In this document: positions 52,390-62,750 of the stretch, piece by piece
Layout: every line of letters starts with the position of its first letter
How positions within the stretch are numbered: the stretch's first letter is position 1
Sequence record: MN022785.1
Length of the DNA: 64,000 nucleotides
Source: Escherichia phage VEc20
Strand: one strand, 5' to 3'
Notes under the pieces: model-generated
Seen by the model: the letters and a program-made list of their open reading frames with translations, nothing else
What the model was told of the DNA's origin: nothing
Databases searched by the model: none
Position numbers and translations under genes: made by a program

Positions 52390-52397
52390 TATAAATA
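52390..52397 (+). promoter_or_regulatory. late promoter motif TATAAATA upstream of gene 34
   Basis: exact TATAAATA about 35 nt upstream of ATG 52432. Confidence 0.55.
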
Positions 52398-52431: not shown

Positions 52432-55400
52432 ATGGCCGAGATTAAAAGAAAGTTCAGAGCAGAAGATGGTCTGGACGCAGGTGGCGATAAAATAATCAAC
52501 GTAGCTTTAGCTGATCGTACCGTAGGAACTGACGGTGTTAACGTTGATTACTTAATTCAAGAAAACACAGTTCAGCAATATGATCCAACTCGTGGATATT
52601 TAAAAGATTTTGTAATCATTTATAATAATCGTTTTTGGGCAGCAACGGATAATATTCCAAAACCTGCTGGAAATTTTAATAGAATTCGTTGGAAAGCATT
52701 ACGTACTGATGCCGTATATACAACCGTATCATCTGGACCATATCAATTAAAATCCGGAGAAGCAATTTCAGTAGATACATCAGTTGGCAATGACATTGAG
52801 TTTACTTTACCAGCTTCTCCGCTTGATGGAGAAACCGTAATAATTCAAGATATCGGTGGAAAACCTGGCATAAATCAGGTTAAAATAAATTCTTCAAATC
52901 AGAGTATTGTCAATTTTAGAGGTGAACAGGTACGTTCAGTTTTAATGACTCATCCAAAGTCACAGATGGTATTCATTTTTAATAATCGTTTGTGGCAAAT
53001 GTATATTGCTGATTATAGCAGAGAAGCTGCGATTGTTACTCCATCGACTGCATATCAAGCACAATCTAATGATTTTATCGTACGTAGATTTACTTCTGCC
53101 GCGCCGATTAATGTTAAGCTCCCAAGATTTGCCAATCATGGAGATATCATTAATTTCGTTGATTTAGATAAATTAAATCCACTTTATCATACAATTGTTA
53201 CGACATATGATGAAACGACGTCAGTGCAAGAAGTTGGAACTCATTCCATTGAAGGCCGTACATCGATTGACGGTTTCTTGATGTTTGATGATAATGAGAA
53301 ATTGTGGAGATTGTTTGACGGGGATAGTAATGCGCGTTTACGCATTATAACAACTAATTCTAATATTCGTCCAAATGAAGAAGTCATGGTATTTGGCGCG
53401 AATAATGGAACAACCCAAACAATTGAACTTCAGCTTCCAACCGATATTTCCATTGGTGATACTGTTAAAATTTCCATGAATTACATGAGAAAAGGACAAA
53501 CAGTTAAAATCAAAGCTGCCGGTGAAGATAAAATTGCTTCTTCAGTTCAATTGCTGCAATTCCCAAAACGCTCAGAATATCCGCCTGAAGCTGAATGGGT
53601 AACAGTTCAAGAATTAGTTTTTAATGGTGAAACTAATTATGTACCAGTTTTGCAACTTGCTTATATAGAAGATTCTAATGGAAAATACTGGGTTGTACAG
53701 CAAAACGTTCCGACAGTTGAAAGAGTCGATTCTTTAAATAATTCTACTAGAGCAAGATTAGGCGTAATTGCTTTAGCTACGCAAGCTCAAGCAAATGTCG
53801 ATTTAGAAAATTCTCCACAAAAAGAATTAGCAATTACTCCAGAAACGTTAGCTAATCGTACTGCTACTGAAACTCGCAGAGGTATTGCAAGAATAGCAAC
53901 TACTGCTCAAGTGAATCAGAACACCACATTCTCTTTTGCAGATGACCTTATCATCACTCCTAAAAAGCTGAATGAAAGAACTGCTACAGAAACTCGTAGA
54001 GGTGTCGCTGAAATTGCTACGCAGCAGGAAACTAATACAGGTACTGATGATACTACAATCATCACTCCTAAAAAGCTTCAAGCTCGTCAAGGTTCTGAAT
54101 CATTATCTGGTATTGTAACTTTTGTATCTACCGCAGAAGCTACTCCAGCTTCTAGCCGTGAATTAAATGGTACGAATGTTTATAATAAAAACACTAATAA
54201 TTTAGTTGTTTCACCTAAAGCTTTGGATCAGTATAAAGCTACTCCAACGCAACAAGGCGCAGTAATTTTAGCAGTTGAAAGTGAAGTAATTGCTGGACAA
54301 AGCCAAGAAGGATGGGCAAATGCGGTTGTAACGCCAGAAACGTTACATAAAAAGACATCAACTGATGCAAGAATTGGTTTAATTGAAATTGCTACACAAA
54401 GCGAAGTTAATACAGGAACTGATTATACTCGTGCAGTCACTCCTAAAACTTTAAATGACCGTAGAGCAACTGAAAGTTTAAGTGGTATAGCTGAAATTGC
54501 TACACAGGTTGAATTCGACGCAGGCGTCGACGATACTCGTATCTCTACACCATTAAAAATTAAAACCAGATTTAATAGTACTGATCGTACTTCTGTTGTT
54601 GCTCTATCTGGATTAGTTGAATCAGGAACTCTCTGGGACCATTATACCCTTAATATTCTTGAAGCAAATGAGACACAGCGTGGTACACTTCGTGTAGCTA
54701 CACAAGTTGAAGCTGCTGCAGGAACATTAGATAATGTTTTGATAACTCCTAAAAAGCTTTTAGGTACTAAATCTACTGAAGCACAGGAAGGTGTCATTAA
54801 AGTTGCAACTCAGTCTGAAACTGTGGCTGGAACGTCAGCAAATACTGCTGTATCTCCAAAAAATTTAAAATGGATTGTGCAGAGTGAACCTACTTGGGCA
54901 GCTACTACTGCAATAAGAGGTTTTGTTAAAACTTCATCTGGTTCAATTACATTCGTTGGTAATGATACGGTAGGTTCAACACAGCCATTAGAATCATATG
55001 AGAAAAATGGTTATGCAGTATCACCATATGAATTAAATCGCGTATTAGCAAATTATTTGCCATTAAAAGCAAAAGCTGTAGATAGTAATTTATTAGATGG
55101 TCTAGATTCGCTCCAGTTCATTCGTAGGGACATTGCACAAACAGTTAATGGTTCACTAACCTTAACCCAACAAACGAATCTGAGTGCCCCTCTTGTATCA
55201 TCTAGTACTGCTACATTCGGTGGATCAGTTTCAGCAAATAGTACATTAACTATTTCTAATACTGGAACGGCAACTCGTCTGATTTTTGAGAAAGGACCTC
55301 AAACTGGAACAAACCCAGCTCAAACGATGACAGTCAGAGTGTGGGGAAATCAATTTAGTGGGGAATCAGACACAACACGTTCTACCGTATTTGAAGTTAG

Positions 55401-56301
55401 TGATGAAACGTCTAGTCATTTTTATTCTCAGCGTAATAAAGCTGGAAATATAACATTTAATATCAACGGTACAGTAACACCGATAAATGTTAATGCTTCA
55501 GGAACATTGAATGCAAATGGTGTAGCAACATTTGGTAATTCAGTCACTGCAACTGGTGAAATTATTTCTCGAAGCGCAAATGCTTTCCGTGCTATTAACG
55601 GAAATTATGGTTTCATTGTTCGCAATGATGGGTCAGTAACGAATTTTATGCTTACTGCATCGGGTGATCAAACTGGCGTATTTAATGGATTGCGTCCTTT
55701 AGCTATTAATAATGCATCTGGCCAAGTAACGATTGGTGAAAGCTTAATCATTGCAAAAGGTGCTACTATAAGTTCAGGCGGTTTAACTGTTAACTCGAGA
55801 ATTCGTTCTCAGGGTACTAAAACCTCTGATTTATATACCCGTGCGCCAACATCTGATACAGTAGGATTCTGGTCAATCGATATTAATGATTCAGCCACTT
55901 ATAACCAGTTCCCGGGTTATTTTAAAATGGTTGAAAAAACTAATGAAGTGACTGGACTTCCATACTTAGAACGTGGTGAAGAAGTTAAATCTCCTGGTAC
56001 ATTGACTCAGTTTGGTAACACACTTGATTCACTTTACCAAGATTGGATTACTTATCCAACGACCCCAGAAGCACGTACCACTCGCTGGACACGTACATGG
56101 CAGAAAACCAAAAACTCTTGGTCAAGTTTTGTTCAGGTATTTGACGGAGGTAACCCTCCTCAACCTTCAGATATAGGAGCGATCCCATCTGATAATGGAA
56201 TAATAGGTAATCTTACTATTCGCGATTTCTTGCGAATTGGTAATGTTCGCATTATTCCTGACCCAGTGAATAAAACTGTTAAATTTGAGTGGATTGAATA
56301 A
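52432..56301 (+). CDS. 34: long tail fibre proximal subunit
   Basis: 1289 aa; internal ITPKKL...ATETRRG.AEIAT repeats; matches T4 gp34 size and N-terminus. Confidence 0.9.
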   Translation: MAEIKRKFRAEDGLDAGGDKIINVALADRTVGTDGVNVDYLIQENTVQQYDPTRGYLKDFVIIYNNRFWAATDNIPKPAGNFNRIRWKALRTDAVYTTVSSGPYQLKSGEAISVDTSVGNDIEFTLPASPLDGETVIIQDIGGKPGINQVKINSSNQSIVNFRGEQVRSVLMTHPKSQMVFIFNNRLWQMYIADYSREAAIVTPSTAYQAQSNDFIVRRFTSAAPINVKLPRFANHGDIINFVDLDKLNPLYHTIVTTYDETTSVQEVGTHSIEGRTSIDGFLMFDDNEKLWRLFDGDSNARLRIITTNSNIRPNEEVMVFGANNGTTQTIELQLPTDISIGDTVKISMNYMRKGQTVKIKAAGEDKIASSVQLLQFPKRSEYPPEAEWVTVQELVFNGETNYVPVLQLAYIEDSNGKYWVVQQNVPTVERVDSLNNSTRARLGVIALATQAQANVDLENSPQKELAITPETLANRTATETRRGIARIATTAQVNQNTTFSFADDLIITPKKLNERTATETRRGVAEIATQQETNTGTDDTTIITPKKLQARQGSESLSGIVTFVSTAEATPASSRELNGTNVYNKNTNNLVVSPKALDQYKATPTQQGAVILAVESEVIAGQSQEGWANAVVTPETLHKKTSTDARIGLIEIATQSEVNTGTDYTRAVTPKTLNDRRATESLSGIAEIATQVEFDAGVDDTRISTPLKIKTRFNSTDRTSVVALSGLVESGTLWDHYTLNILEANETQRGTLRVATQVEAAAGTLDNVLITPKKLLGTKSTEAQEGVIKVATQSETVAGTSANTAVSPKNLKWIVQSEPTWAATTAIRGFVKTSSGSITFVGNDTVGSTQPLESYEKNGYAVSPYELNRVLANYLPLKAKAVDSNLLDGLDSLQFIRRDIAQTVNGSLTLTQQTNLSAPLVSSSTATFGGSVSANSTLTISNTGTATRLIFEKGPQTGTNPAQTMTVRVWGNQFSGESDTTRSTVFEVSDETSSHFYSQRNKAGNITFNINGTVTPINVNASGTLNANGVATFGNSVTATGEIISRSANAFRAINGNYGFIVRNDGSVTNFMLTASGDQTGVFNGLRPLAINNASGQVTIGESLIIAKGATISSGGLTVNSRIRSQGTKTSDLYTRAPTSDTVGFWSIDINDSATYNQFPGYFKMVEKTNEVTGLPYLERGEEVKSPGTLTQFGNTLDSLYQDWITYPTTPEARTTRWTRTWQKTKNSWSSFVQVFDGGNPPQPSDIGAIPSDNGIIGNLTIRDFLRIGNVRIIPDPVNKTVKFEWIE

Positions 56302-56309
56302 GAGGTATT

Positions 56310-57425
56310 ATGGAAAAATTTATGGCAGAGTTTGGACAAGGATATGTCCAAACGCCATTTTTATCGGAAAGCAATTCAGTAAGATATAAAATAAGCATAG
56401 CGGGTTCTTGCCCGCTTTCTACTGCGGGGCCATATGTTAAATTTCAGGATAATCCCGTTGGAAATCAAACATTTAGTGCAGGTCTTCATTTAAGAGTTTT
56501 TGACCCTTCTACGGGAGCATTAGTTGATAGCAAGTCATATGCTTTTTCTGCTTCAAACAATACAACATCTGCCGCTTTTGTCAGTTTCATGAATTCTTTG
56601 TCAAACAATAGACTTGTTGCTATATTAACTAGCGGAAAGGTTAATTTTCCTCCTGAAGTGGTATCTTGGTTAAGGGGAGCAGGAACTTCAGTTTTTCCAT
56701 CAGATTCAGTATTGTCAAGATTTGACGTGTCATATGCTGCTTTTTATACTTCTTCTAAAAGAGCTATTGCATTAGAGCATGTTAAACTAAGTAATAGAAA
56801 AAGCACAGATGATTATCAAACTATTTTAGATGTTGTATTTGATAGTTTAGAAGACGTCGGAGCTACAGGATTTCCTAAAAGAACATACGAAAGCGTTGAG
56901 CAATTTATGTCTGCGGTTGGAGGAACTAATAATGAAATTGCGCGATTGCCAACTTCAGCTGCTATAAGTAAACTTTCTGACTACAATTTAATTCCTGGTG
57001 ATGTTCTTTATCTTAAAGCACAACTATATGCTGATGCTGATTTACTTGATCTTGGAACTACAAATATATCTATTCGTTTTTATGATGCATCAAATGGATA
57101 TATTTCCTCGACCCAAGCTGAGTTTACTGGGCAAGCTGGGTCTTGGGAATTAAAAGAAGATTATGTAGTTGTTCCTGAAAATGCAGTAGGATTTACGATA
57201 TATGCACAAAGAACTGCCCAAGCAGGTCAAGGCGGCATGAGAAATTTAAGCTTTTCTGAAGTATCAAGAAATGGCGGCATTTCAAAACCTGCCGAATTTG
57301 GCGTCAACGGTATTCGCGTTAATTATGTCTGCGAATCGGCTTCACCTCCAGATATAATGGTACTTCCTACACAAGCCTCTTCTAAAACTGGCAAAGTGTT
57401 TGGGCAAGAATTTAGAGAAGTTTAA
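56310..57425 (+). CDS. 35: long tail fibre hinge protein
   Basis: 371 aa; synteny. Confidence 0.85.
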   Translation: MEKFMAEFGQGYVQTPFLSESNSVRYKISIAGSCPLSTAGPYVKFQDNPVGNQTFSAGLHLRVFDPSTGALVDSKSYAFSASNNTTSAAFVSFMNSLSNNRLVAILTSGKVNFPPEVVSWLRGAGTSVFPSDSVLSRFDVSYAAFYTSSKRAIALEHVKLSNRKSTDDYQTILDVVFDSLEDVGATGFPKRTYESVEQFMSAVGGTNNEIARLPTSAAISKLSDYNLIPGDVLYLKAQLYADADLLDLGTTNISIRFYDASNGYISSTQAEFTGQAGSWELKEDYVVVPENAVGFTIYAQRTAQAGQGGMRNLSFSEVSRNGGISKPAEFGVNGIRVNYVCESASPPDIMVLPTQASSKTGKVFGQEFREV

Positions 57426-57430
57426 ACTGA

Positions 57431-57448
57431 GGGAGCCTTCGGGTTCCC
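57431..57448 (+). terminator. hairpin GGGAGCC-TTCG-GGTTCCC plus T-run after gene 35
   Basis: seen in sequence. Confidence 0.5.
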
Positions 57449-57456
57449 TTTTTCTT

Positions 57457-57464
57457 TATAAATA
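57457..57464 (+). promoter_or_regulatory. late promoter motif TATAAATA upstream of gene 36
   Basis: exact TATAAATA about 24 nt upstream of ATG 57488. Confidence 0.55.
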
Positions 57465-57487
57465 ATATTAAAATAAAGGGGCATATA

Positions 57488-58138
57488 ATGGCTGATTTAA
57501 AAGTAGGTTCAACTGTAGGTGGATCTGTCATTTGGCATCAAGGAAATTTTCCATTGAATTCAGCCGGTGACGATGTACTCTACAAATCATTTAAAATATA
57601 TTCAGAATATAATAAACCACAGGCAGCTGATAACGATTTCGTTTCTAAAGCTAATGGTGGTACTTACACCGGTCCAATTACTATTAATTACGGGGTAAAT
57701 AGTTATCTTCAATTAAGTAATAATGAAACCCCCATTCGAATTCGTTCTGGTGGCGGTACCGGTAATACTCTTGTAGTTGGCGGCTCTTCCGGCGGTATTA
57801 GTTTTAGACCTGCAGGTAGTGAAATCACTACTGGACAAATTACTATTACACCAGAAGGTTTGACAACATTTACCAGGGCTGTAACGGCTCCATCGGTAAC
57901 TGTTACATCTACTCCTTCCGCAGCATCTGATGTTACTCGTAAAGATTATGTTGATGGAGCAATAAATACTGTTACAGCAAATGCAAACTCTAGGGTATTA
58001 CGCTCTGGAGACACTATGACAGGAAATTTAACTGCGCCAAACCTTTTTTCACAGAATCCTGCATCTCAACCTTCACACGTTCCACGATTTGACCAAATCG
58101 TAATTAAGGATTCTGTTCAAGATTTCGGCTATTATTAA
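57488..58138 (+). CDS. 36: long tail fibre distal connector
   Basis: 216 aa; synteny. Confidence 0.85.
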
Positions 58139-58146
58139 GAGGACTT

Positions 58147-61100
58147 ATGGCTACTTTAAAACAAATACAATTTAAAAGAAGCAAAACTGCAGGTCAACGT
58201 CCTGCTGCTTCAGTATTAGCCGAAGGTGAATTGGCTATAAACTTAAAAGATAAAACAATTTTCACAAAAGATGACTTAGGTAGTGTTATAGAATTAGGTT
58301 TAAAATATGGAGGAACAATTGATGGTTCTTTAACTGTTAATGGAAACATAATTGGAAATTTAACAGGTAACGCTGCAACTGCAACGAAATTAAAAACAGC
58401 ACGAAAAATTAATGGTATATCCTTTGATGGGTCAAAAGATATCACGCTAACTCCATCTGACATAAATGTCAATAGCACAACGTTTATAAAAAATAACGGC
58501 GAATTACCTGTTGATGCTAATTTAGATGAGTATGGGCCTGTTGAAGAATATCTTGGAGTTTGGTCGAAAGCAACTTCAACCAACGCTCAACCAGCAAATA
58601 AATTTCCAGAAGAAAATGCTGTAGGTGTTCTAGAAGTATTTGTGGCCGGTCAATTTGCTGGTACTCAGAGATATACAACTAGATACGGAAATGTTTATAT
58701 TCGTTCCTTGACTGCTACATGGAACGGAGTAAACGGTCCGTGGAGTGCGTGGCGAAATATTCAATCTGGTACTCGTCCACTGTCAACAACGATTGATCTT
58801 AATGATCTAGGAGGCGCTGAACACCTTGGTTTGTGGCGAAATAGTTCAAATTCCATTGCTACCTTTGACAGAAATTTCCCAGAAGAAGGATCGTCAGCTC
58901 AAGGACTTTTAGAAGTATATGAAGGTGGAAACTATTCTCGCACACAGAGATATACGACCAGATTTGGTGTTGTTTATACTCGCTGTCTTGCTGCTGCATG
59001 GGATGCATCTGCACCTAAATGGGGACCGTGGCAACAAGTCGGTAATGTCACACCGGCGACTTTCTATGACGGAGACCTGAATGATTTTAAAGCTCCTGGG
59101 TTATATAACATTTTAGGCACTGATGCCGTTATTAACTGTCCTACCGGTGAAGGTTTGCCGACTGTTATTGTTGGTTTGCTGGAAGTTAAACAGCGTGCTT
59201 CTGGCGGTGCTATTTTCCAAAAATTTACTACTGCCGGAACGGGTGCAACTACTCGCGATCGTATTTTTGAGCGTGCATATACTGGTGGTGTGTGGGGTGC
59301 ATGGAACGAAGTATATACATCTTATTCCCTGCCAATTACTTTGGGTATGGGTGGTATTAAATCTAACTTAGCAGAGTTAGACTGGCAAACATTTGATTTT
59401 GTTCCTGGTAGTATGTTTAGCGTTCCTTTGAACAAAATAAAGAACATGCCAGCTAATATGGATTGGGGTACGATTGACGGAAACTTAATTATGTTTTCTG
59501 TTGGTCCTAGCGAGCACACCAGCACAGGACGTACTGTTCAGGTTTGGCGTGGTACTGTATCCCAGACAAACTACCGTTATTTTGTCGTTCGTGTATTCGG
59601 TAATTCAGGAAATAGAACTTGCACAGTTCGTCGCGTTGTTCTTGAAGATGGTCGCCACAAATGGACAGCGCAACAAGATTTTAATGGCGCAGTTAACTTC
59701 GGTGCTCCTACCAATTTTAACTCTACTGTTAACCTTAATAACACTACCACTTTTAAAACAGAAGTTAAATTTCGCTCATTGAATGCATTCCGTATGTATG
59801 GCGGAAAATTTGGTACAATTTTCCGTAATGATGGAGAGAGTCTTTATATTCTTTCCACCGACGAAGATGATCAAGATGGAAACTTTAATAAAAATAGACC
59901 TTTCCGCTATCAATTAAAAACTGGCGATGTTACTTTGGGTGGCACTAGTGGTGCTAACGTTTTAAAATTAAAACGTGATTCTCTCACCGCATTTTTTGGT
60001 GGTGATATTAACATGAAAGGCTTGATGACTTTTGACGCCGGACGTTTAGGATCACGAGATTATTTTAAATTTAACCATTGGGGTGATAGTAATAATGCGC
60101 GCGATAACATTATTCAGTTAGAAGACAGCAAAGGCGTTCATTTTTCCACTGAACGTACTTTAGCGACAGGTGCAATTAAAACTAAATTTTTTGGTGAAAC
60201 CTTCACTGACGGTACATTATACCTAAATCAGATGAATAATAGCTCTGAACGATTCTCTATCAACAATTGGGGAAATTCAGAAGTTGGACGCGCGGCAATC
60301 TTAGAAATCAGCGATTCACAAGGTTATCACTTCTATACGGAACGTAGAACAGATGACAGTTTGGTGTTTGATATATCCGGTGCGTTGACCGTGCGTGGAC
60401 CTAACGGAATAACCGTCAAAAACTCAACTGGTGCACGCCATATCTGGTTTAGAGATGATAGCGAAACAGAAAAGGCTGTTATTTGGGTGACCGATGATGG
60501 TATTTTACATATACGAAATAATCGTGGGGGTTCATTTAGTCATCACTTCCAAGGTGCAATGATTAAAGCGGGAGAGCGTGTTCCTTATGCCGGAGATCAA
60601 GGGCTTATTCGCGGTGAAGTTTCTGGTGGTGCATGGGTAGACTGGCGAGATCGTCCGGCTGGATTGTTGGTAGACTGTCAGGACTCACGAAGTCAAGCAT
60701 ATAACATTTGGAAAGCTACTCATTGGGGCGAACAGCACCTTGCGGCGATGGGTGTTCATGCTGGCGGTGGTAATCCTCATGTTGTATTGCATGTGGGTGG
60801 GAGTGATTATGCATTTGCATCTAACGGTGATTTTACTGCTGGTGCTGCTGTATATTGTAACGACGTTTATATTCGTTCTGACCGTCGTCTGAAAAATAAT
60901 GTTGAAGACTACGAAGAGAATGCGGTGGATAAGGTAAATAAACTCAAAGTTAAAACCTATGATAAAGTTAAATCTCTTTCTGACCGCGAAGTTATCGGCC
61001 ATGAGATTGGTATTATCGCACAGGATTTGCAAGAAGTATTACCGGAAGCTGTTAGCACTTCTAGTGTCGGATCTCAGGATAACCCAGAAGAAATTTTAAC

Positions 61101-61230
61101 AATTTCTAACTCTGCTGTGAACGCGCTTTTAATTAAGGCTATCCAAGAAATGAGCGAAGAAATTAAAGAATTAAAAACGCCTTTCTTCACTAAAATTGCT
61201 CGCAAAATTAGTAATTATTTTAAATTCTAA
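58147..61230 (+). CDS. 37: long tail fibre distal subunit with C-terminal intramolecular chaperone domain
   Basis: 1027 aa; last 117 aa carry S-D-R-R-L-K...[15 protein letters not shown]...LLIKAIQEM signature. Confidence 0.9.
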
Positions 61231-61236
61231 CAACAA

Positions 61237-61249
61237 GGGGCTTTGCCCC
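61237..61249 (+). terminator. GC hairpin GGGGC-TTTG-CCCC between genes 37 and 38
   Basis: seen in sequence. Confidence 0.4.
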
Positions 61250-61262
61250 TTTGGAGAAAATT

Positions 61263-62063
61263 ATGGCAGTAGTTGGAGTTCCTGGCTGGATTGGAAGTTC
61301 AGCCGTAAATGAAACGGGTCAGCGCTGGATGAGTCAAGCAGCTGGTCAATTAAGATTGGGTGTTCCTTGCTGGATGAGTCAATTTGCAGGTCGCTCAAGA
61401 GAAATTATTCATACACTTGGAGCAGACCATAACTTCAATGGTCAATGGTTCCGAGATAGATGTTTTGAGGCCGGTAGTGCACCTATAGTGTTTAATATTA
61501 CAGGTGATTTAGTATCATATTCTAAAGATGTTCCTTTATTCTTCATGTACGGGGATACGCCTAATGAATATGTTGTTCTTAATATTCATGGTGGTGTTCA
61601 TATGTGGGGTCGTGGTGGTAATGGTGGATACACTCACTCGGGAGGCGACGGTAACGGTACACAAGGTGGTCATGTTATTCAAAATGATATCGGTGGACGG
61701 CTTCGTATTTGGAACTACGGTGTTATAGCTGCTGGCGGTGGCGGCGGTGGTGGTATTGCATATCGTCCACACTCAGGGGCAAACTGGCAAGATATCGGTG
61801 GCGGTGGTGGTCGACCTTTCGGTGGCGCTGGCGGTGGCGGTTATTCCGGTGGTGCTGCTTCGTATGAAGGTCCGGGTGGTGGTTATGACTATGGTAACGC
61901 ACACTCCGGCGCTGGTGGTAATGCTGGTGCTGCTGGTCAGAATGCATGGTCTGACGGCGGTAAAGTTCTTAAAGTTGGTGTTGGTGGTGCGTCTGGTCAT
62001 GCAGTGTTTGGATCTTCTCCAACTTGGGGTGTTGTTGGAACAATTTACGGACCAAGAGTATAA
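61263..62063 (+). CDS. 38: gp38 tail-fibre adhesin with glycine-rich motifs (T2/T6 type)
   Basis: [30 protein letters not shown]-terminus; central poly-Gly islands separated by short variable segments; GGAG before ATG. Confidence 0.8.
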
Positions 62064-62093
62064 TGTGAATAAATACCCTTAAAAGGAGGGTCT

Positions 62094-62750
62094 ATGGCAG
62101 CACCTAGAATATCATTTTCGCCCTCTGATATTCTGTTGGGTGTTCTAGATCGCTTGTTCAAAGATAACGCTACCGGGAAGGTTCTTGCTTCCCGGGTAGC
62201 TGTCGTAATTCTTTTGTTTATAATGGCGATTGTTTGGTATAGGGGAGATAGTTTCTTTGAGTACTATAAGCAATCAAAGTATGAAACATACCGTGAAATT
62301 ATTGAAAAGGAAAGAAATGCACGCTTTGAATCTGTCGCCCTGGAACAACTCCAGATAGTTCATATATCATCTGAGGCAGACTTTAGTGCGGTGTATTCTT
62401 TCCGCCCTAAAAACTTAAACTATTTTGTTGATATTATAGCATATGAAGGAAGATTACCTTCAACAATAACTGAAAAATCACTTGGAGGATATCCTGTTGA
62501 TAAAACTATGGATGAATATACAGTTCATTTAAATGGACGTCATTATTATTCCAACTCAAAATTTGCTTTTTTACCAACTAAAAAGCCTACTCCCGAAATA
62601 AACTACATGTACAGTTGTCCATATTTTAATTTGGATAATATCTATGCTGGAACGATAACCATGTACTGGTATAGAAATGATCATATAAGTAATGACCGCC
62701 TTGAATCAATATGTGCTCAGGCGGCCAGAATATTAGGAAGGGCTAAATAA
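62094..62750 (+). CDS. t: holin
   Basis: 218 aa; N-terminal TM segment VAVVILLFIMAIVWY; matches T4 holin T from memory. Confidence 0.9.
   Translation: MAAPRISFSPSDILLGVLDRLFKDNATGKVLASRVAVVILLFIMAIVWYRGDSFFEYYKQSKYETYREIIEKERNARFESVALEQLQIVHISSEADFSAVYSFRPKNLNYFVDIIAYEGRLPSTITEKSLGGYPVDKTMDEYTVHLNGRHYYSNSKFAFLPTKKPTPEINYMYSCPYFNLDNIYAGTITMYWYRNDHISNDRLESICAQAARILGRAK

Follow-up and report, generated by a model that had tools for sequence, protein, structure and literature searches.

Predicted self-cleavage of gp37 and an Ox2-type gp38 adhesin at the long tail fibre tip of Escherichia phage VEc20

We asked which protein of Escherichia phage VEc20 carries the receptor-binding tip of the long tail fibre, and to which of the known kinds of T-even fibre tip it belongs. 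The window analysed is a stretch of 64,000 nucleotides (sequence record MN022785.1), and all coordinates below refer to its plus strand. With a probability of about 0.93, the genes analysed specify a T-even distal fibre tip like those of T2, T6 and Ox2, in which gp37 is cleaved and gp38 serves as the adhesin, with OmpA as the most likely receptor; nothing found here argues directly against this reading.

The C-terminal chaperone domain of gp37

Gene 37 (58147..61230) is an open reading frame for the precursor of the distal subunit of the long tail fibre (1027 aa, 112.9 kDa), and phrog_1699 ('long tail fiber protein distal subunit') matches residues 1-1022 of its product with an E value of 1.9e-233. 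A preliminary description of this DNA had placed the signature of an intramolecular chaperone in the last 117 residues of gp37, beginning with a serine encoded at 60877. We found the domain at exactly this place: nucleotides 60877..60879 encode Ser911, and the Pfam profile Peptidase_S74 (PF13884) matches residues 911-969 (E 2.8e-15, 56.8 bits against a cut-off of 22) over model positions 1-57 of 58, with model position 1 on Ser911. A match of this strength lies far outside chance. Many PHROG tail-fibre profiles likewise start to match gp37 at Ser911. The alignment to peptidase S74 domains that the description had proposed as a check thus gives a clear match with an intact Ser/Lys pair, and the strings that it quoted, LLIKAIQEM among them, are all present in the translation of gp37.

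The domain (60877..61227; residues 911-1027, 13.2 kDa) makes up the last 117 of the 1027 residues of the distal subunit and is predicted to be released by autoproteolysis. Ser911 is the predicted nucleophile, with Arg910-Ser911 as the scissile bond, and Lys916 (60892..60894), five residues past Ser911, is the predicted general base. Ser911, Asp912, Arg914, Leu915 and Lys916 were invariant in all 21 aligned S74 domains, down to 34% identity. These came from a homologue search with the 117-residue domain, which returned 29 proteins, mostly short or annotated as partial, so that the set, used both for this invariance test and for the alignment behind the structure prediction described below, does not sample the family widely. 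In a separate alignment, Ser911 and Lys916 were also kept in gp37 of T2, T6 and Ox2. The Ser/Lys mechanism has been described for T5 and K1F, and in T5 pb1 the pair Ser1264/Lys1269 has the same spacing as Ser911/Lys916 and the S1264A substitution blocks cleavage (PMC4690869).

The AF2 model of the 117-residue domain, computed as a monomer, had a pLDDT of 86.7 and reproduced the fold of solved chaperone domains, in which a mixed alpha/beta part is followed by a long coiled-coil helix. With Foldseek, the only PDB entries that matched the model with a probability of at least 0.94 were intramolecular chaperone domains, namely the MyRF ICA domain 7dc3 (the best match, TM 0.73), the GA-1 chaperone 3gud and the endoNF chaperone 3gw6. 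The domain also aligns to the S16 gp37 structure 6f45_A. Profile, alignment and model agree that gp37 ends in an intramolecular chaperone of the S74 type whose Ser/Lys pair is intact. A search of NCBIfam with gp37 and gp38 gave no match to either protein, which is uninformative because this library covers bacterial and archaeal annotation.

Where would the mature protein end? The junction VYIR/SD.RLK is common to gp37 of this phage, T2, T6 and Ox2 in the alignment. In S16 gp37 the cleavage site has been mapped to the homologous junction DLNVS^SDRRIKK, and in the fPS phages a site has been predicted at the same DVYIR^SD.RLK junction (PMC7917993). From the conserved junction and these sites we infer that gp37 of VEc20 is cleaved autoproteolytically, and the predicted mature protein (58147..60876) comprises residues 1-910 (99.7 kDa) with the C-terminus ...NDVYIR, ending at Arg910.

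The gp38 adhesin and its likely receptor

Gene 38 lies directly downstream of the chaperone-bearing gene 37: the stop of g37 at 61230 is followed by the start of g38 at 61263 and then by the t holin gene. The gene (61263..62063, the latter being the last base of the stop codon) encodes a predicted tail-fibre tip adhesin of the Ox2 subtype (266 aa, 26.9 kDa). Its true start is almost certainly the ATG at 61263, because a GGAG ribosome-binding site (61253..61256) stands 6 nt ahead of it, position 1 of the Gp38_N profile falls on that Met, and the Ox2 and RB32 proteins are annotated with 266 aa. The TTG at 61251, given as the start in a mechanical list of open reading frames and in the T6 annotation in AP018814, was rejected in favour of this ATG.

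The Pfam profiles GP38 (PF05268; E 2.5e-67, 227 bits against a cut-off of 25) and Gp38_N (PF21721; E 2.9e-20, 72 bits against a cut-off of 25) both match gp38, as do the sequences of solved structures, PP01 gp38 (9v85, E 3.2e-65) and S16 gp38 (6f45_D, E 5e-43, residues 5-263). The Gp38_N match marks the predicted N-terminal attachment domain (61263..61388; residues 1-42), which contains Trp9, Trp22 and Trp37, all invariant across eight gp38 sequences. In S16 the corresponding tryptophans dock onto the cleaved tip of gp37 (PMC6851490). By analogy with such adhesins, gp38 should be present in the virions of this phage.

Glycine accounts for 26% of gp38 overall and for 39% of residues 116-250, with runs at residues 158-164, 179-183, 190-193 and 205-207. 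The conserved N-terminus and poly-glycine islands announced in the preliminary description are thus in place, and the hypervariable segments that it expected between them became visible when identity was scored segment by segment (the window's gp38 residue against RB32, T6 and T2, hence four non-redundant sequences only). Five glycine-rich motifs with identities of 0.67-1.0 alternate with four variable segments with identities of 0.38-0.61. Motif 1 (GRGGNGG, 61608..61628, residues 116-122, identity 0.86) is followed by hypervariable segment 1 (61629..61733, residues 123-157, 0.61), motif 2 (GGGGGGG, 61734..61754, residues 158-164, 0.95) by the 14-residue segment 2 (61755..61796, residues 165-178, 0.38), and motif 3 (GGGGGRPFG, 61797..61823, residues 179-187, 1.0) by segment 3 (61824..61907, residues 188-215, 0.49). 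Motif 4 (GAGGNAGAAG, 61908..61937, residues 216-225, 0.67) and motif 5 (GGASGHAV, 61983..62006, residues 241-248, 0.75) enclose segment 4 (61938..61982, residues 226-240, 0.40). Variable segments between glycine-rich motifs are known host-range determinants (PMC3157838), and by analogy the determinants of this phage are predicted to lie within nucleotides 61629-61982.

Can the receptor be predicted from these segments? Comparison with the adhesins of T2, T6 and Ox2, which had also been suggested beforehand, places gp38 as an Ox2 subtype within the T2/T6 class: it is identical to Ox2 gp38 at 263 of 266 residues (99%), to T6 gp38 at 74% and to T2 gp38 at 50%. Residues 16-266, which include the specificity domain, match phages ESh28 and ph0021 without a single difference. 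T2 uses FadL/OmpF and T6 uses Tsx, receptors that differ from the OmpA assigned to the Ox2 type. The near-identity of the specificity domain to that of Ox2 therefore points to OmpA rather than to FadL/OmpF or Tsx, and OmpA, possibly with an influence of LPS, is by analogy the most likely receptor. Ox2 has been found to bind OmpA (PMC12032242). In addition, the motif RPHSGA in variable segment 2 resembles the R-V-H-S-G-A stretch of type 1 adhesins, which is reported to contact OmpA (PMC12032242).

OmpA alone may nevertheless be too simple an answer, because the receptor behaviour reported for Ox2 and RB32 is more complex: RB32 is reported to use OmpA plus LPS, and for neither phage does a single surface component reportedly suffice, with LPS among the influences described (PMC3157838). 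The architecture could thus be as described while the receptor is another one, or not OmpA by itself, either through dependence on LPS or through a shift caused by the differences from Ox2. These differences are three, A14 (S in Ox2), N174 (K) and G193 (R), and the latter two lie in or beside variable segments 2 and 3, where single substitutions can switch the receptor (PMC12032242; PMC12892980). Against this reading, N174 and G193 are what modern Ox2-like adhesins commonly carry, as judged from four of them (ESh28, DalCa, ph0021 and that of the window), and segment 2 contains the motif similar to the part of type 1 adhesins that contacts OmpA. We consider a different or additional receptor unlikely, though still a distinctly more serious prospect than the two readings of the architecture weighed in the next section.

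Relation to known fibre tips and other readings

T2 and T6 have the same Pfam pattern as VEc20 and the same junction, and PMC3157838 states, citing Drexler 1986, that processing of T2 gp37 was shown experimentally and that in T2 and T6 gp38 caps gp37 after its cleavage. T2 gp37 differs in its length of 1341 aa and in a chaperone domain without the last 13-17 residues present here. The C-terminal tail of 17 residues that T2 lacks might have a role of its own.

The S16 complex (PDB 6F45) shows the same architecture at atomic resolution. There, a gp37 trimer auto-cleaved at ...S^SDRRIKK is capped by a single gp38 through tryptophan prongs, and gp38 displays a polyglycine sandwich. S16 is only remotely similar in sequence (gp38 E 5e-43, gp37 tip E 3e-12), its host and variable loops differ, and its chaperone domain has 113 residues compared with 117 in this phage. 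The structure is reportedly that of Dunne et al. 2018. Further afield, the S74 domains of K1F endosialidase, the GA-1 neck appendage, T5 pb1 and MyRF have the same fold and the same Ser...Lys(i+5) motif, and they too sit at the C-terminus of a trimeric fibre or spike; in those proteins, however, the cleaved protein is itself the receptor-binding or enzymatic one, whereas here cleavage would uncover the docking site of a separate adhesin.

Does gp38 of VEc20 belong on the fibre at all? In T4, the textbook member of the genus, the genes stand in the same order (g37, g38, t), yet gp38 is an assembly chaperone absent from virions and the C-terminus of gp37 binds the receptor. The same Pfam scan run on controls separates the two systems: T4 gp37 consists of Collar and fibre-repeat domains without S74 and T4 gp38 matches no Pfam family, whereas T2 and T6 have S74 on gp37 and GP38 plus Gp38_N on gp38. 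The proteins of the window show the pattern opposite to that of T4, with a gp37 that has no T4-type tip domains and a gp38 that matches adhesin families and solved adhesins with E values of 1e-43 to 1e-67. A tip of the T4 type is therefore extremely improbable here, and the preliminary description was right to call the module T2/T6-type and unlike that of T4.

It is also conceivable that the S74-like domain is a degenerate remnant that does not cleave and stays on the mature fibre. Cleavage is argued here from homologues, and the residues that assist the proposed oxyanion hole (Arg/Asp in T5, upstream of the scissile bond) could not be mapped onto the different tip fold of gp37. But the full SD.RLK motif, with its Ser/Lys pair, is intact and does not vary, the domain shares 98-100% identity with its RB32 counterpart (residues 901-1027) and is highly similar to those of T6 and Ox2, gp37 processing is reported for T2 and T6 (PMC3157838), and a retained domain would cover the surface on which gp38 docks (PMC7917993). 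We regard such a remnant as very improbable and prefer a gp37 that is cleaved and capped by gp38.

Proposed assembly, mosaic structure and flanking signals

The assembly of the cleaved and capped tip can be pictured as follows. Gp37 would be made as the 1027-residue precursor, and its last 117 residues, the S74-type chaperone, would trimerise and serve as a template on which the beta-helical fibre tip folds. In a correctly folded trimer, Lys916 would then activate Ser911 to cut the Arg910-Ser911 bond and the 13-kDa domain would leave, exposing the flat trimeric end of gp37 (...DVYIR). One gp38 would then dock on this end via the three tryptophans of its N-terminal domain, in a 3:1 assembly of gp37 and gp38 predicted from homologues. 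The bound gp38 would display the polyglycine sandwich formed by its glycine-rich motifs, and the variable loops between them would touch the receptor, most likely OmpA as the specificity domain is essentially that of Ox2.

This module of gp37 chaperone and gp38 adhesin is already known, ordinary and well studied. Processing of gp37 and capping by gp38 were reportedly demonstrated in 1986 for T2 and in 2018 for S16, and the receptor-recognising protein of Ox2 gene 38 (X05675) was reportedly studied in the Henning laboratory in 1987-1991, its sequence appearing in 1987. Since the literature already contains the mechanism, the structures and the adhesin sequence itself, nothing is added here to tail-fibre biology. 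The use of the analysis lies in annotation, where the mature fibre protein would end at Arg910 and the receptor-binding protein would be gp38, not gp37, and in host-range prediction or engineering of this phage, for which it offers a most likely target and the nucleotides predicted to determine it.

The two closest relatives resemble different parts of the locus. In Ox2, where g38 likewise stands between g37 and t, the glycine-rich motifs of gp38 are all identical to those of VEc20 and the variable segments nearly all so, and gp37 is almost identical over its final ~60 residues. Ox2 gp37 is, however, unrelated before the cleavage site (about 50% identity when the last 250 aa are compared), a mismatch that we attribute to an RB32-type tip in this phage. 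RB32/RB33 (NC_008515) have a gp37 of equal length (1027 aa) that is 89% identical, with a chaperone domain 98-100% identical and a patchily divergent proximal shaft, and a gp38 of equal length and of the same subtype family, with an identical N-terminal domain but a specificity domain only 65-95% identical per 20-residue block. In sequence the locus is a mosaic of a DalCa-like shaft, an RB32-like gp37 tip that includes the chaperone domain, and an Ox2-like specificity domain of gp38. There is about an even chance that it is a three-part recombinant, in which a gp37 tip of RB32 type with its chaperone (about 60200-61150) came to lie behind a shaft of DalCa/Ox2 type and ahead of a gp38 specificity domain of Ox2 type. 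The pairing of an RB32-type tip with an Ox2-type adhesin was absent from the records examined (Ox2, DalCa and RB32), and the two partners share the DVYIR end and an identical N-terminal domain of gp38. If the mosaic is genuine and yields a working fibre, tip and chaperone together would be swapped independently of the specificity domain of the adhesin, and compatibility would need only the DVYIR end of gp37 and the N-terminal domain of gp38.

Between the two genes, the fold of 61215-61275 (61 nt) contains a stem-loop (AGGGGC-UUU-GCCCCU, 61236..61250). The z-score of that whole stretch, -1.6, is not significant alone, and since the terminator scan gave no match there either, we rejected the stem-loop as a terminator. 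A sequence scan found a late-promoter box, TATAAATA, upstream of g36 at 57457..57464. Between 57465 and 64000 there is no further TATAAATA box, so none directly upstream of g37 or g38, and a separate late promoter for g38 was rejected. By analogy with T4 late promoters, the box at 57457..57464 probably drives g36, g37 and g38.

The gp37 chaperone domain and its predicted cleavage

The preliminary description of Escherichia phage VEc20 placed the signature of an intramolecular chaperone at the gp37 C-terminus, from a serine encoded at about 60877. Nucleotides 60877-60879 indeed encode Ser911, from which 117 residues run to the end of gp37, and the three motifs quoted there were all found in the gp37 translation. 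When the C-terminus was compared with S74 chaperone domains, the Pfam model Peptidase_S74 ('chaperone of endosialidase') matched residues 911-969 (E 2.8e-15, 56.8 bits, cut-off 22), with its position 1 at Ser911. The observation is real and far beyond chance. The boundary of the domain is sharp, since many PHROG tail-fibre profiles start matching the isolated chaperone fragment at its first residue. In alignments, the VYIR/SD.RLK junction and the core G-I-(I/V)-A-Q..L...LPEAV were both common to gp37 of the window, T2, T6 and Ox2, and Ser911, Asp912, Arg914, Leu915 and Lys916 were invariant across 21 aligned S74 domains, down to 34% identity. Among proteins of solved structure, S16 gp37 (the construct of PDB 6F45) aligned directly with the domain, and a phage tail fibre (8jov) and the domain of myelin regulatory factor (7dc3) aligned weakly. 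When the 117 residues were modelled with AlphaFold2 (mean pLDDT 86.7), the model matched only three PDB entries with confidence: 7dc3 (TM 0.73), 3gud (the GA-1 chaperone) and 3gw6 (the chaperone of endoNF). By every criterion of sequence and modelled fold, the domain belongs to the S74 family.

In the L-shaped fibre of T5, Ser1264 and Lys1269 are the equivalent residues and cleave the Thr1263-Ser1264 bond by a mechanism taken to be the same as that of K1F endosialidase, and an S1264A mutant remains uncleaved (PMC4690869). The bond cleaved in S16 is S^S within DLNVS^SDRRIKK, and cleavage at the identical DVYIR^SD.RLK junction was previously predicted for Yersinia T-even phages (PMC7917993). By analogy, we infer that gp37 undergoes autocleavage; the predicted products are a mature gp37 of residues 1-910 (99.7 kDa) and a released domain of 13.2 kDa. 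That the S74 domain is instead a non-cleaving remnant is unlikely, because its motif has been kept intact, with near-identity to T6 and Ox2, and because processing of T2 and T6 gp37 has been reported. An arrangement of the T4 type, in which gp37 itself would bind the receptor, is excluded by the family tests. The contrast with T4 drawn in the preliminary description was correct: gp37 of T2 and T6 carries Peptidase_S74, whereas T4 gp37 carries Collar and fibre-repeat domains; gp38 of T2 and T6 carries GP38 and Gp38_N, while T4 gp38 gave no family match in the same scan. The RefSeq note on T4 gene 38 draws this contrast too, as does the literature (PMC3157838, PMC6851490).

The last 17 residues of gp37 (1011-1027; 61177-61227) extend past the chaperone coiled-coil as a helix predicted with lower confidence (pLDDT about 70); they are found in T6, Ox2 and RB32 and missing from T2. 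The N-terminal half (residues ~105-400; 58450-59350) contains about three repeat units of ~90 residues each, visible as off-diagonal blastn matches (58600-58722 versus 58872-59001). The first unit carries a VYIRS string, which was ruled out as a second cleavage site because D.RLK does not come next.

The gp38 adhesin and its expected receptor

The adhesin matched Pfam GP38 (E 2.5e-67) and, at the N-terminus already described as conserved, Gp38_N (E 2.9e-20). It also matched the adhesin crystal structures of PP01 (9v85, E 3e-65) and S16 (6f45_D, E 5e-43, residues 5-263). Trp9, Trp22 and Trp37 were invariant in 8/8 gp38 sequences, and their S16 counterparts project as prongs into pockets at the end of cleaved gp37 (PMC6851490). 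Glycine makes up 26% of gp38, with runs at residues 158-164, 179-183, 190-193 and 205-207. The claim that poly-glycine islands frame variable loops held when the sequence was compared with RB32, T6 and T2 (identities of 0.67-1.0 in five motifs versus 0.38-0.61 in four segments). Trojet et al. (2011) described this arrangement of five glycine-rich motifs and four variable segments, and recombinant mapping has located host specificity in a ~400-bp stretch with the four variable segments (PMC3157838).

We placed the gp38 start at ATG 61263, with GGAG upstream at 61253-61256, and rejected TTG 61251, which came from a mechanical ORF listing. The downstream ATG is favoured by the Ox2, RB32 and DalCa records and by the Gp38_N model; in the T6 record AP018814 (8711-9508), gp38 is annotated four residues longer at its N-terminus (MEKIM...), which corresponds to starting at TTG 61251.

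Judged by sequence identity, the adhesin belongs to the Ox2 subtype: 263 of its 266 residues are identical to Ox2, compared with 74% for T6 and 50% for T2, and g38 shares 98.4% DNA identity with the Ox2 sequence of 1987. Of the three residues that differ from Ox2, two (N174 and G193) are alleles of all modern Ox2-like adhesins examined (ESh28, DalCa and ph0021), and gp38 of ESh28 and ph0021 is identical to ours from residue 16 onward. Because Ox2 binds OmpA (PMC12032242) and RB32, whose adhesin is the next closest, depends on OmpA and is affected by the composition of LPS (PMC3157838), OmpA would be the expected receptor of VEc20 gp38. There is a modest probability that the phage uses another receptor, either instead of OmpA or together with it.

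Gene order, domain identities, conserved catalytic and docking residues, predicted fold and subtype come directly from our data; for the mechanism we draw on homologues with experimental data (T2, S16, T5 and K1F). The chaperone domain would trimerise and nucleate folding of the fibre tip. After trimer formation, Ser911 and Lys916 would cut the Arg910-Ser911 bond, the chaperone domain would depart and the exposed DVYIR end would dock one gp38, whose variable loops, at the distal face of its polyglycine sandwich, would bind OmpA.

All of this has been described before, even this adhesin sequence, and our result is the correct annotation of an ordinary module. Drexler (1986) reportedly described T2 gp37 processing, Riede (1987) the adhesin concept, Drexler (1989) the motif and segment organisation and Dunne (2018) the atomic structure. 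The value lies in the practical receptor prediction and in a modest note on mosaicism; otherwise the module is of little interest.

Mosaic locus and operon context

By sequence comparison, the g37-g38 locus (58147-62063) appears as a three-part mosaic. The gp37 shaft (58147 to ~60200) is closest to DalCa (96-100% identical), the gp37 tip with the start of the chaperone domain (~60200 to 61150) is of the RB32 type (86-100%; only 30-69% to DalCa), and the gp38 specificity domain (61450 to 62063) is of the DalCa/Ox2 type (98-100%; only 73-88% to RB32). Shuffling of this kind is already known for the locus (PMC3157838). Several Tequatrovirus genomes are 95-96% identical to the window over 24 kb, and no record in the phage collection was identical to it.

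The T-even long tail fibre operon spans 52432-62750 and comprises g34 (proximal fibre subunit, 52432-56301), g35 (hinge protein, 56310-57425), g36 (short distal subunit, 57488-58138), g37 (distal subunit, 58147-61230, 1027 aa), g38 (adhesin, 61263-62063, 266 aa) and the holin gene t (62094-62750). Two genes, g34 and g36, are each closely preceded by an exact T4-type late-promoter box (TATAAATA; 52390-52397 and 57457-57464, respectively); 17 such boxes were found in the window versus 8.1 expected by chance. As the box scan found none directly upstream of g37 or g38, g36, g37 and g38 are probably co-transcribed.

A short GC-rich stem-loop (AGGGGC-UUU-GCCCCU, 61236-61250) separates the stop codon of g37 from the ribosome-binding site of g38. 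Predicted folding of the 61-nt stretch around it was not significantly more stable than that of shuffled sequence (z -1.6), and the stem-loop was not among the hits of the terminator scan. Further upstream, gp35 residues 58-112 (56481-56645) matched Pfam ILEI, the interleukin-like EMT inducer or FAM3-type domain (E 8e-08, 33 bits, cut-off 27).
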